Shown: piece after piece, positions 33,073 through 36,082 of the stretch
Position numbering within the stretch: the first letter of the stretch is position 1
Layout of the letters: every line of letters begins with the position of its first letter
From: Dehalococcoidia bacterium
Lineage (GTDB): Bacteria > Chloroflexota > Dehalococcoidia > Bin125
Direction of reading: 5' to 3'
Assembly (NCBI GenBank): GCA_963555985.3
Contig: OY820591.1
Coordinates: 2,304,001 to 2,368,000 of the forward strand
Length of the DNA: 64,000 bases
Made by a program: the position numbers and the translations under genes
Notes under the pieces: generated by a model
The model's database searches: none
Told to the model about the DNA's origin: nothing
Seen by the model: the letters and a program-made list of their open reading frames with translations, nothing else

Positions 33073-33175
33073 ACAGTCCGGCTTTCTCTACCGATGCGCG
33101 ACGAAACTCGGGCGGCACATGCCCTCAGCCTACCCGCCAGCGCGGATAGAGGACAGTCGCCGCCGCTGCACTCGC

Positions 33176-33637
33176 TCACTCGCGCCGCTTGCGTTTCTCA
33201 ATCTCCCGGCCCTGCTTCTGCTCCAGCCGGCCCAGCGCGCGGCCTTTGTCGGGGTGCGGATCGATGCGAACGCCGTAGTTGACGCGGCCTTCGTGACCTT
33301 CGGGCAAGTACTCCGTGATGGGAAGACCTTCCTCATCGCAGAAGAGCAGTCAATGGCAGTACTTCCAGCGCTGCATCTCCTCGCAGGGGCAGATCCAGGT
33401 GGATTCCTTGACCTCTTCCGCCTTGTCCTCATAGAAGTTGCAGGGACAGAGCGGACGCCCGTAGTCGTCGATATGTTTGGCCAAGCCGATCACCAGAAAT
33501 TCGGTGATGTCGTGCTCGGGATGCAGATAGGACCCGCTCTTCTCCGCGAAGTTGCGGGCGAACTTCCACATCTTGTTCAGGTTCTTCTCCGACGCCTGCT
33601 GACGATCGTCGTCGCTGACTCGCTCGACATCAGCCAT
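33176..33637 (-). CDS. Ferredoxin-thioredoxin reductase catalytic subunit, probable selenoprotein (153 aa, Sec at UGA 33352-33350)
   Basis: GRPLCPC...WICPC...KYCH-UGA-LLFCDEEGLPITEYLPEGHEGRVNYG... The frame stays open for 57 more codons and a SECIS-like hairpin follows. Confidence 0.9.
33311..33342 (-). promoter_or_regulatory. Bacterial SECIS-like hairpin
   Basis: mRNA UCUGCGAUGAGGAA-GGUC-UUCCCAUCACGGA begins about 8 nt after the UGA. The apex AGGUCU matches the E. coli fdhF SECIS. Confidence 0.8.
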
Positions 33638-33694
33638 AAGTCACTCCCCGCCCGTGCCTGCGGCCCGCATCTGCGGAGCCTGTGTCCACCGTAC

Positions 33695-34591
33695 TCAGTT
33701 GTCGCTCTCCTGGCGTCCGCGCAGGAAGTTCTCTAGGTCTTCTATCAGCGCGTCGGCAGAGGGAAGGTCAGCTGCGCCACCTTGGGACTGCGCTTCCGGC
33801 GCGGCCGGTTCGGGCGCGGCCGCTTCCAGCCGCGCTACATATTCGCGCAGCTCGGGATTCTCGCTGAGCGCTTCCTCGAGCTGCGCGTGGAATCGCTGAA
33901 TCGCGCGATCCAGCGGCTCCAGATCGAGGCGCAGGTCAGTCATGTCGCCAACCACGCGAAGCAACGCCTGAGCGCCGACCGGGTTCGTGATCCCGGGCAG
34001 ATAGTGCGGCACCGAGGCCCACAGGCTCACGCCGCCCACGTCTCGCCGGCGGCAGTGATCGTGAAACACGCCCACGATCCCGCTCGGGCCTTCAAAGCGC
34101 GAGGGATGCATGTTGTAGCGCTCGGCCAACTGCGAATTGTTCGCCGAACCGGAGACATGCACCGGTCGCGTGTGCGGCGCGCCGCTGGCGACCGCGCCCA
34201 TCGAGAGCACCAGCTTGGCCCCGATCACATCCACCAACTCCGACATCGCGGCCAGATAGCGCCGCCAGCGATAGTGCGGCTCAATCCCCAGGCCGACGAC
34301 GATATCTCGGCGCGCGCCCGGGCGTGCGCGCAAATGCACGAACTCCGTGCGCGGCCAGACGATGATCCGTTCGCCGCGGTGGTAGCGCGCCATCGGTCGA
34401 GCTTCGGTGAAGTCGTAGAATTCCTCCGGGTCGATGCTGGCGAACGGTCCCGTGCCGTGCTGCTGGATCAGGTACTGGGCCGCCGTCGAGGCTGACTCGC
34501 CAGCGTCGTTCCAGCCCTCCCAGGCCAGAATCAGGATGGGATCGGTGAGATCGGGCAGGCGCTCGATTTGTAGGTCAGGTGAGGTGCTCAT
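33695..34591 (-). CDS. PAC2-family (proteasome assembly chaperone-like) protein
   Basis: AWEGWNDAGESAS, IDPEEFYDFTEARP, GIEPHYRW, PHTRP, WASVPHY. Confidence 0.9.
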   Translation of the reverse strand: MSTSPDLQIERLPDLTDPILILAWEGWNDAGESASTAAQYLIQQHGTGPFASIDPEEFYDFTEARPMARYHRGERIIVWPRTEFVHLRARPGARRDIVVGLGIEPHYRWRRYLAAMSELVDVIGAKLVLSMGAVASGAPHTRPVHVSGSANNSQLAERYNMHPSRFEGPSGIVGVFHDHCRRRDVGGVSLWASVPHYLPGITNPVGAQALLRVVGDMTDLRLDLEPLDRAIQRFHAQLEEALSENPELREYVARLEAAAPEPAAPEAQSQGGAADLPSADALIEDLENFLRGRQESDN

Positions 34592-35495
34592 GGCGGCAGT
34601 CTATCGGAACGCGGGCGAGCGTCCTGTTGAGCGAGCCGCAAACTCGGACTTGGCCGCTCAACTCGCCAAAGACTGGGCCGCAGCCGTGGCAGCCAACCGC
34701 GAACAGGTCGCGCGCGTCCGCGAACAGCCCGAACGAGCCGACCACTACGCGCCGATCGCGGGCGCATTTCGCGCGGATCCGCAGCGTACCGGCGACGAGG
34801 CGCTCAACGCGCTGCTCGCAGTCGCCCAGCCCGGCGATACTTGGCTCGACATCGGCGCGGGCGCGGGGCGATTCGCGCTGGCGCTGGCGCTCCGCGTCAA
34901 GCATGTGATCGCGGTGGAGCCGTCCGAGGCGATGCGCGCCGAATTCGAGACGATCAGTCGCGAGCACGGGATTGAGAACGTCACTCTGCTCGATCAACGC
35001 TGGCCGCCGCCTGAACCGAGGCTGATCGACGGCGTTGATGTCGCCATGATCTCGCACGTGGGCTACGACATCGAGGAGATGGGCGGACTCTTGGACGCGA
35101 TGGAGACCGCCGCGCGCCGCGAATGCGTCGCCTTGATGTATGAACGCTCGCCCGGCTCGCTCTTCCACGAACTTTGGCCGGCGATCCACGGAGAGCCGCA
35201 GGCGCACTTGCCCGCATTGCCGCAGCTGGTGGCGCTCTTGCAAGCTCGCGGCTCCGAGCCGGCCCTGACCGAGATTCCCACGCGGCGCTGGCGCTTCGCC
35301 GCGCACGCTGAGGCCGAAGAGTGGGCGCGGCGGCGCTTGTGGCTTGAGCCCGACTCCGCCCGACTCTCTACCCTGCGTGCAGGCTTGACGGACTTGCTCG
35401 CCGGCGACGGCGACCAACTCAGCTTGCCGGATACGCCCAAACAGATGCTCGTACGCTGGACACGCGCCGGCGTCAGCGAAAGGAACGATCGATGA
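34590..35495 (+). CDS. Class I SAM-dependent methyltransferase (start uncertain)
   Basis: WLDIGAGAGRF, IAVEPSEAM, SHVGYD. Confidence 0.85.
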   Translation: MAAVYRNAGERPVERAANSDLAAQLAKDWAAAVAANREQVARVREQPERADHYAPIAGAFRADPQRTGDEALNALLAVAQPGDTWLDIGAGAGRFALALALRVKHVIAVEPSEAMRAEFETISREHGIENVTLLDQRWPPPEPRLIDGVDVAMISHVGYDIEEMGGLLDAMETAARRECVALMYERSPGSLFHELWPAIHGEPQAHLPALPQLVALLQARGSEPALTEIPTRRWRFAAHAEAEEWARRRLWLEPDSARLSTLRAGLTDLLAGDGDQLSLPDTPKQMLVRWTRAGVSERNDR

Positions 35496-36082
35496 ACCGC
35501 GTCCCACCTCTCAGCACCGACGAACTGCTTCAAGTCGCTCCCTTCATGCAGGAGATGCGCGACAACGGCGTCACGATTCCCACCTCGCTGCACGTGCTCG
35601 GCTACCGCCCGCGCGTGCTGGAAGCGTTCGGGCCGTTCTTCGGCTCGATCATGCGCGAAGGCGATGTGCCCGCCGGACTCAAGCAGCTGATCGCGCATGT
35701 CGTCTCCCGTTCGGCCGGCTGCCTCTACTGCCAGGCCCACACCGGTCACTTCGCGCACACGCTCGCGGGCGAGACGTTTGATCGCGTGGAGGCGGTCTGG
35801 GCGTTCGAGACTTCGGAACTGTTCAATGACGCCGAGCGCGCCGCTCTGCGCCTGGCGCGCGACTCCGGGGTCGTGCCGAACGCGGCCACCGACGAGCATT
35901 TTGAGGAGCTGCACAAGCACTGGTCGGACTCGGAGATCGTCGAGATCGTGAGCGTGATCTCGATGTTCGGCTTCCTCAACCGCTTCAACGACACGCTCGC
36001 CAACGCGCTGGAACCGGACGCGATCGAGTTCTCCGAGAACCACCTCGTTGAGGCTGGCTGGACCGTCGGCAAGCACGGCTGA
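35492..36082 (+). CDS. Carboxymuconolactone decarboxylase/AhpD-family protein
   Basis: VSRSAGCLYCQAH, AERAAL, GFLNRFNDT. Confidence 0.9.
   Translation: MNRVPPLSTDELLQVAPFMQEMRDNGVTIPTSLHVLGYRPRVLEAFGPFFGSIMREGDVPAGLKQLIAHVVSRSAGCLYCQAHTGHFAHTLAGETFDRVEAVWAFETSELFNDAERAALRLARDSGVVPNAATDEHFEELHKHWSDSEIVEIVSVISMFGFLNRFNDTLANALEPDAIEFSENHLVEAGWTVGKHG

Follow-up and report, generated by a model that had tools for sequence, protein, structure and literature searches.

The 64,000-nucleotide window analysed here (contig OY820591.1, positions 2,304,001 to 2,368,000; coordinates below count from its first letter) comes from the genome of an uncultured member of the Dehalococcoidia (Chloroflexota) and carries, on its minus strand, a gene related to the catalytic subunit of ferredoxin-thioredoxin reductase (FTR). 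Its annotatable open reading frame (ORF) closes at a TGA, and the same frame continues beyond it for 57 codons (LLFCDEEGLPITEYLPEGHEGR...KRKRRE), giving a product of 153 residues when the first TGA is translated as selenocysteine (Sec, U). That the frame past KYCH-TGA hides a selenoprotein, with the UGA replacing the last cysteine of the CHC motif (Cys87 in the Synechocystis numbering), had been proposed in a first-pass annotation made from the letters of the DNA; the former proposal is borne out by the TGA=U translation and the latter by motif alignment and a constant offset to a solved FTR chain. We consider it very likely that the gene is intact and specifies a 153-residue FTR-like [4Fe-4S] disulfide reductase, in which UGA at codon 96 would be decoded as Sec.

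Table 1. Features of the FTR-like gene in the window (SECIS, selenocysteine insertion sequence; dN/dS, ratio of nonsynonymous to synonymous substitution rates)
Feature	Position	Strand	Description or basis
Full-length coding sequence of the FTR-like selenoprotein (predicted)	33179..33637	(-)	153 codons, ATG 33635-33637; TGA=U translation
Annotatable ORF, 95 aa	33350-33637	(-)	ends ...KYCH, then TGA
In-frame UGA, predicted selenocysteine codon 96	33350..33352	(-)	column conservation, Sec machinery, reads/contigs
True stop TGA	33176-33178	(-)	57 codons beyond UGA codon 96
Redox/cluster motif CPC-x16-CPC-x8-CHU, codons 64-96	33350..33448	(-)	invariant alignment columns; 1dj7_A offset
C-terminal extension, 57 residues beyond the classical FTR core	33179..33349	(-)	alignment; dN/dS 0.165-0.175
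SECIS-like hairpin, upper part	33317..33337	(-)	GAUG / bulged A / GGAA / loop GGUC / UUCC / CAUC
Apical loop GGUC of the hairpin	33325-33328	(-)	
Possible lower stem, UUCUG with CGGAG	33311..33343	(-)	single-sequence folds; includes UGC of Cys100
Shine-Dalgarno-like GGGGAG, 6 nt 5' of ATG	33644..33649	(-)	read from sequence

FTRs reduce thioredoxin by way of a redox-active disulfide, itself reduced with the help of a [4Fe-4S] cluster (PMC6006212). The predicted product has the motif positions CPC (residues 64-66), x16, CPC (83-85), x8 and C94-H95-U96, a CPC-x16-CPC-x8-CH(C/U) spacing identical to that of the classical FTR catalytic subunit, with the intervening His95 kept. The Pfam family PF02943 (FeThRed_B) matches the read-through product with 87.6 bits and the 95-residue product with 74.7 bits, both above the gathering threshold of 22, and its match on the former extends to residue 103, beyond the TGA. 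In the alignment to the Synechocystis FTR chain 1dj7_A, query residue n falls on chain residue n-9, and the six Cys/Sec positions fall on chain residues 55, 57, 74, 76, 85 and 87, with C66 on 57 and U96 on 87. The best matches among solved structures are true FTR catalytic chains (7bzk_A, 91.5 bits; 1dj7_A, 81.2 bits), with ~45% identity to FTR catalytic chains over 89 aligned columns. An AlphaFold2 model, with a mean predicted local distance difference test (pLDDT) of 80.6, superposes on such chains, reaching a target-normalised template modelling (TM) score of 0.64 for 7c3f_A. By the split of roles between ligands and disulfide in FTR, C64, C83, C85 and C94 are the presumed ligands of the cluster. 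The other two, C66 and U96, occupy the redox-active positions, which is supported by statements in PMC2398784 and in bioRxiv 10.1101/2022.10.17.512470. The gene almost certainly encodes Sec at one of the two redox-active positions.

The host genome (G000) also specifies a second, divergent FTR-like paralogue of 113 residues (L124, at G000:C1:68153-68404 (-), ORF 1483-1824). This protein matches PF02943 with ~32 bits, has an all-Cys motif of the form CPC-x9-CVC-x13-CFC and is encoded with no in-frame stop.

Conservation across the UGA codon and the decoding machinery

Related loci were collected in two sets (20 + 80); 99 of these 100 carry the motif, and the remaining one (L082) was dropped for a pattern mismatch. 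The codon at the key column of the 99 is TGA in 86, TGC in 12 and TGT in one. Removal of identical genes leaves 80 Sec forms and 13 Cys forms and, once later loci are added, TGA stands at the same column in 89 distinct genes. Full-length read-through matches occur in relatives at 99-55% identity. Among genomes of the same family, 23 of 24 give a full-length match with one TGA, the 24th being a fragment at a contig end that covers residues 99-150. In a sample of 301 genomes spread evenly across the class, 76 have a homologue at the cut-off of E <= 1e-20. By a hand count of the resulting table, 43 of the 76 have the TGA (one of these, G259, being an unpublished genome), 19 have a full-length homologue free of stops, and 14 have only split or partial matches lacking a TGA. 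The full-length Cys homologues, up to 76% identical, have CHC at the U column and share the C-terminal stretch.

The frame downstream of the codon was assessed by the median pairwise dN/dS of 76 distinct Sec genes of the main clade. Upstream, over the 32 codons that run from CPC to CH, it amounts to 0.147; past the TGA it is 0.175 over 48 codons, or 0.165 when only codons +16 to +48 are counted. This 48-codon downstream stretch is under purifying selection, and none of the 76 genes has a further stop in it. These values bear on the view that the TGA is a real stop, which leaves either a truncated 95-residue protein or a pseudogene with a decaying downstream frame. Such a view accords with the public gene calls, which end at the TGA (the 95-residue database entries P0066 and P0075 are Sec forms cut there), and with the truncated product passing the Pfam threshold on its own. 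It sits badly with the low downstream dN/dS and the lack of stops in the 48 codons, with the retention of both the TGA and the downstream frame in 89 distinct genes that diverge to ~55% identity, and with the loss of one of the two redox-active residues that truncation would entail. A real stop is, in our judgment, very improbable.

The host genome, with a size of 3.33 Mb, a completeness of 96.4% and a contamination of 7.5%, has the genes of the Sec machinery: a tRNA-Sec (selC; 74.3 bits against a cut-off of 47, called by ARAGORN as tRNA-SeC with anticodon tca) and, above the curated cut-offs, selA (531 bits), selB (348.8 bits) and selD (366 bits). This matters for a further reading, in which a standard amino acid, be it Trp, Gly or Cys, is inserted at the UGA through a reassigned code or near-cognate suppression—read-through alone would also explain the downstream conservation. 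However, the FTR-like gene itself ends at a TGA stop, as do 33 of its 86 relatives in Sec form, and hence TGA has not been reassigned. In homologues, the position is filled by Cys, which usually stands in for Sec, and, besides the complete machinery here, both tRNA-Sec (71.6-74.8 bits) and selA (516-549 bits) are found in all five genomes tested from odd lineages. We hold decoding as a standard amino acid to be extremely improbable.

The codon at 33350-33352 is covered in contigs of two DNA-type runs that hold the stretch, with a summed contig depth of ~15 to 219, and also by two metatranscriptome libraries (from relatives 90-95% alike), in which the contigs 33287-33410 and 33291-33412 bridge it. 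No alternative base is listed in any of these four public runs, which excludes an obvious base-calling error at the UGA. Read depth and the parts lacking RNA-contig cover were given no weight. A sequencing or assembly error of a TGC or TGT codon is a general possibility in any metagenome-assembled genome, and this one has the contamination given above; set against the same TGA in 89 distinct genes from independent assemblies, we regard its probability as practically negligible. The first-pass annotation had called for an alignment with Cys or UGA in one column (here 13 and 86 of the 99 loci, respectively), for conservation past the UGA, for selA, selB, selC and selD in the genome, and for reads free of TGC and TGT; the data agree with it on each of these points.

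Two peculiarities were seen among the sel genes themselves. The selD match at G000:C1:1998583-1999506 (L019) contains an in-frame TGA and probably specifies a selenoprotein too. For selA there are two matches with an identical 531.1 bits, one at G000:C1:1680550-1681896 (L009) and the other on a small contig at G000:C7:5496-6842 (L010), which probably represent a duplicated contig in the assembly (contamination 7.5%).

A SECIS-like hairpin 3' of the UGA codon

A hairpin that is recovered by RNAalifold begins 13 nucleotides 3' of the UGA. As in bacterial SECIS elements, the stem-loop lies shortly 3' of the UGA and has G/U in its apical loop; the GGUC loop and the bulge presumably resemble those of the Escherichia coli fdhF SECIS. 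The lower stem is weaker than the upper part, with one of its five pairs unpaired in 17 of 20 sequences.

Covariation was examined in the 86 Sec-form sequences (74 distinct rows), with 500 shuffles and with slid 3' partners as controls. Paired cells amount to 94.8% in the Sec forms, versus 22.8-62.8% with the slid partners. Compensatory changes are found at three of the eight upper-stem pairs, namely 25:39 (GC 39, UG 24, CG 7), 24:40 (UA 63, CG 6) and 22:42 (GC 45, AU 8, GU 2, UA 1). Not one of the 500 shuffles reaches the observed value for paired cells, for cells changed on both sides or for the covariation score.

A 12-nucleotide core, GGAAGGTCTTCC, occurs in all 80 distinct Sec forms and in none of the 13 Cys forms. 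Even the synonymous sites of GAA-GGT-CTT-CC show no variation among the 80 Sec forms, whereas codon choice varies in the 13 Cys forms, all of which encode much the same peptide there (E/D-G-L/F/M-P-I-T-E). This freezing of the core in Sec forms only is the most telling control, being internal to the data, and is the pattern of an RNA signal confined to UGA-bearing genes. A constraint at the RNA level that is specific to TGA forms is a further point against a real stop, and selection on a SECIS-like hairpin in TGA forms only is one against the insertion of a standard amino acid.

Several observations weigh against taking the gene for a Sec-containing FTR. With respect to the hairpin, pair 22:42 is unpaired in 18 of the 74 distinct rows; the number of pairs with a change on both sides is matched by 306 of 500 shuffles and that of further pair types by 309 of 500; and the shuffle counts overstate the case because the sequences share ancestry. 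The window hairpin taken alone is no stabler than shuffled sequences (z = -0.61; 57 of 200 fold as well), and an Rfam scan of 33100-33700 gave no family, the best score being 21.1 bits, against a gathering threshold of 84, for an unrelated miRNA model. With respect to the product, the contigs from the RNA libraries prove neither transcription nor translation, and the case for selenium incorporation is a genomic one. The structural model is of moderate confidence near the active site (pLDDT 70 and 69 for residues 81-100). As for function, the thioredoxin substrate, the ferredoxin donor and the contact between cluster and Sec are inferred by homology, and the neighbouring genes offer no functional hint.

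Exchange of selenocysteine and cysteine at one column

The distribution of the TGA in the class is uneven: in family f34, genus g83 (~55% identity) has it, and sister genera in the class-wide table are without it. Six loci (L125-L130, from genomes G288, G208, G162, G237, G111 and G223) have the TGA at the same column, with a Val four residues later, and their hairpin differs from that of the window gene, taking the form AUGGGGA-CGGGC-UCCCCAU with -16 kcal/mol in a 57-nucleotide fold. In a further TGA form (L143, G061:C79:4975-5809), the usual core is absent and only a weak hairpin of 5 base pairs is predicted; it could be a third origin of Sec, a pseudogene or an assembly error. The converse case is L141 (G081:C14:34191-35034), which has CHC, with TGC for the last Cys, yet retains an intact GGAAGGTCTTCC core, and is 92% identical to the Sec form L134 (G171) of the same genus. 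It is the only Cys form with the core among the Cys loci viewed (0 of 13 elsewhere, plus a check by eye), and has probably reverted from Sec to Cys recently, its SECIS surviving as a fossil. The genomes of L141 (G081) and L143 (G061) both have tRNA-Sec and selA.

A tree was computed from 113 rows, comprising 108 distinct loci and five database Cys proteins, over 131 columns with the two trait positions masked; duplicates, L082 and L140 were left out. It needs four Sec/Cys changes, three of which are forced by well-supported branches, in a topology that leaves 54 of its 108 inner branches unresolved. Cys forms enclose the g83 group (supports 98, 97 and 99), L143 lies within a Cys-dominated set (support 96), and L141 is placed inside the Sec clade without strong support. 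An earlier, smaller tree (115 rows, trait columns unmasked), which had one Sec/Cys change and one independent pair, is superseded by the 113-row tree. What appears to be new is that Sec and Cys have been exchanged at least three to four times at one column. On our reading, with the direction inferred on an unrooted tree, Sec was probably gained twice or more, with a separate SECIS drawn each time from the same coding stretch, and one lineage recently reverted to Cys, leaving a fossil SECIS.

The residue four positions after the Sec was considered in the same light. It is Cys (codon 100, 33338-33340 (-), in the context [L/M]LFC) in 84 of 86 TGA forms and Val in 13 of 13 Cys forms, a distribution that raises the possibility of a U-x3-C pair, in which the second thiol resolves or protects the first position. 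As a general rule, such a pair was rejected: the +4 residue never changes with Sec in the three to four independent contrasts, Val is found there in the Sec forms L125-L130, L143, L089 and L121, and the revertant L141 keeps its Cys. The UGY codon 100 lies in the lower stem of the hairpin, and hence a reason for Cys100 at the RNA level is possible. As far as these contrasts indicate, the Cys at +4 goes with lineage and is not something that Sec requires.

Candidate chemistry and relation to known reductases

The 57 residues beyond the classical FTR core are conserved in both Sec and Cys forms, with the pattern GLPITEYLP..HEGR..YG...DP.PDKGRALGRLE, and the model reaches a pLDDT of 82-86 for residues 101-130. 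The first-pass annotation was right that the C-terminus is extended. The extension is shared by Cys homologues up to 76% identical and, because it is present in both forms, characterises the subfamily as a whole, with nothing in it peculiar to Sec. Taken alone, the extension has no PDB or Pfam match at E <= 10, and on this ground a fused variable subunit was rejected as its identity. Foldseek returned the 71-residue chain 7c3f_V (40% identity over 48 columns, E = 2.9). The first-pass annotation had further remarked that there is no variable subunit nearby, and this extends to the genome as a whole: a search of the 96.4%-complete genome for the FTR variable-subunit gene (PF02941, FeThRed_A) gave no match, and the control, Synechococcus elongatus, was matched. 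The host is non-photosynthetic by its lineage labels.

The gene is flanked by a PAC2 gene upstream and an S14 gene downstream, and an ABC transporter, a methyltransferase and a CMD/AhpD-like gene also lie in the vicinity. The order PAC2-FTR-S14 is kept in only 22 of the 62 loci with full flanks, and operon context was discarded as a clue to function. The CMD/AhpD-like protein (PF02627, 36.8 bits; 35492-36082 (+)), encoded 2 kb from the FTR-like gene, has a C-x-x-C motif; a gene of this type stands beside the FTR-like gene in only 15 of the 62 full-flank loci.

In FTR, the nucleophilic Cys of the first CPC forms a mixed disulfide with thioredoxin, and a partner 30 residues later closes the disulfide (Arabidopsis residues 87 and 117; described in bioRxiv 10.1101/2022.10.17.512470). 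This Arabidopsis pair corresponds to C66 and U96 of the window protein. In work on the Synechocystis enzyme by Dai et al. (2000, 2007), the second redox Cys reportedly lies beside the cluster; one of the cluster irons takes hold of it in the one-electron intermediate, before it goes on to resolve the mixed disulfide. U96 would accordingly occupy the cluster-proximal redox position.

By analogy with this family chemistry, C64, C83, C85 and C94 would hold the [4Fe-4S] cluster, and a redox-active selenenylsulfide between Cys66 and Sec96 would replace the usual disulfide of the resting enzyme. A ferredoxin-type donor may supply electrons one at a time via the cluster; Cys66, exposed and nucleophilic, would then attack thioredoxin, or some other substrate, at its disulfide, and Sec96, after being held by the cluster as a selenolate in the one-electron intermediate, would resolve the mixed disulfide. 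As a nucleophile and as a leaving group alike, a selenolate surpasses a thiolate, and hence would speed the resolving step; it would also withstand irreversible over-oxidation. The enzyme apparently functions in the absence of the variable subunit that photosynthetic FTRs have—at a guess, the conserved C-terminal 57 residues may take over the shielding or docking role of that subunit. Tentatively, and with somewhat more doubt than confidence, we suggest that Sec has been gained repeatedly and independently, and lost once, always at the resolving position (presumably the cluster-side one) and never at the thioredoxin-attacking Cys, each gain having drawn its own SECIS from the same coding sequence. 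This would mean that selection specifically prefers a selenolate bound to the cluster's unique iron in the one-electron intermediate. If this were true, the family would include an Fe-S enzyme in which an Fe-Se(Cys) bond occurs naturally, and 77Se would serve as a probe of the FTR mechanism that is built into the protein.

The same selenoprotein, with the same cluster and selenenylsulfide chemistry, might instead act on another disulfide substrate, might take its electrons from a donor other than ferredoxin, or both. A glutaredoxin-like or peroxiredoxin-type protein and a small-molecule disulfide are candidate substrates, which would parallel the archaeal and deltaproteobacterial "ferredoxin:disulfide reductase" relatives that may act in this way. 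The negative search for a variable subunit gene, the non-photosynthetic lineage, the 57-residue extension that is not in classical FTR, and the lack of a thioredoxin or ferredoxin gene among the annotated neighbours all favour this alternative, as does the inclusion among solved relatives of the fusions 4tpu (rubredoxin, 39.1 bits) and 7pwe (glutaredoxin/ferredoxin disulfide reductase). On the other hand, the closest solved relatives by far are the true FTR catalytic chains named above (91.5 and 81.2 bits, ~45% identity), and His95 and the entire CPC/CPC/CH(C/U) constellation are kept. We regard a different substrate or donor as less likely than the thioredoxin and ferredoxin of the mechanism set out above.

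Judged by sequence, this is a genuine but routinely truncated selenoprotein gene, and its predicted product is a one-Sec variant of an enzyme family in which Sec forms have been known since 2008. A widespread gene, present with the TGA in 43 of the 76 homologue-bearing genomes of the class sample, is being systematically recorded as a 95-residue fragment. NF041072, the only curated model for Sec-FTR, misses the clade, and hence a dedicated model would repair many records. The chemistry of FTR depends on the capture by the cluster of one Cys of the disulfide, and a natural Sec at this place would be a selenium handle for testing FTR intermediates, by way of 77Se, a heavier atom and a shifted potential; L134 and L141 make up a natural Sec/Cys pair for comparison at 92% identity. 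Furthermore, the clade is a case study of the birth of a SECIS within coding sequence and its decay after the loss of Sec, in that one column has seen several exchanges, a single peptide-coding stretch has yielded two unrelated hairpins, and a revertant still bears the hairpin.

The first-pass annotation mentioned that Sec-containing FTR homologues had been predicted from metagenomes, and such a precedent exists. Zhang and Gladyshev (2008) reported two FTR selenoprotein reads in the Global Ocean Sampling (GOS) metagenomes, one of them with Sec at both redox positions (PMC2398784); the GOS sequences have the form CPU...CPC...CIU (PMC2398784, supplement file 2). Two reviews list a Sec-FTR family with a C-x-U motif (PMC9312934, PMC13188914), which the latter, of 2026, ties to the NCBIfam model NF041072, and the host lineage is described as selenoprotein-rich in PMC13326102. 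The precedent stands for the family as known from metagenomes and does not carry over to the lineage, the published Sec-FTR being a different, double-Sec one (CPU...CIU; NF041072). The window protein scores 42.7 bits against NF041072 ("FtrB family double-selenoprotein"), below the cut-off of 160 and within the 32-45 bits of its Cys relatives; all 99 loci have CPC as their first motif, and the window gene has a single in-frame TGA where the model has two Sec. With that score and the CPC kept, the window protein is not a member of the catalogued double-Sec family. We found no description of a single-Sec FTR clade or of a Dehalococcoidia Sec-FTR in the literature, the PDF and.xls supplements of the 2008 paper lying outside what was covered, and none of a single-Sec FTR in the main text and one supplementary file of BSepDB.

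The proteins of NF041072 and the window protein are alike in being homologues of the FTR catalytic domain (PF02943/COG4802), in ending the third motif with Sec (C-x-U), in having a predicted bacterial SECIS and in being known from sequence only. They differ in that NF041072 has two Sec (CPU, CIU), in contrast to the CPC and CHU of the window protein with its predicted single Sec, and in the 57-residue C-terminal extension and Dehalococcoidia origin of the latter. The classical FTRs of cyanobacteria and chloroplasts (PDB 1dj7, 2pu9, 2pvg, 7bzk and 7c3f) share with the window protein the same motif spacing and the same predicted fold; the window protein is distinguished from them by its predicted Sec in place of the last Cys, its C-terminal extension, a genome without a variable subunit gene and a non-photosynthetic host. 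More distant are 4tpu (entitled rubredoxin) and 7pwe (a Desulfotalea psychrophila glutaredoxin/FDR fusion), with 39.1 and 21.7 bits, which likewise have an FTR-like core, no variable subunit and non-photosynthetic hosts; unlike the window protein, they are Cys forms with fused rubredoxin or glutaredoxin domains.

A further group is made up of the Cys FTR-like proteins of Dehalococcoidia/Chloroflexota and Myxococcota (e.g. P0002, P0018 and P0120), the database entries of which carry the name "ferredoxin:thioredoxin reductase". They belong to the same subfamily (up to 76% identity), have the same length and C-terminal extension and intermingle with the Sec forms on the tree, and they differ in having TGC or TGT for the TGA and no frozen hairpin, except in the revertant L141. 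Together, these Sec and Cys forms make up a separate subfamily of ~150-residue proteins, in records labelled Dehalococcoidia, Chloroflexota or Myxococcota. Sec-FTR as such is not new, having been known from sequence since 2008 and having entered the selenoprotein catalogues; the one-Sec branch, as these comparisons indicate, is a subfamily in its own right.

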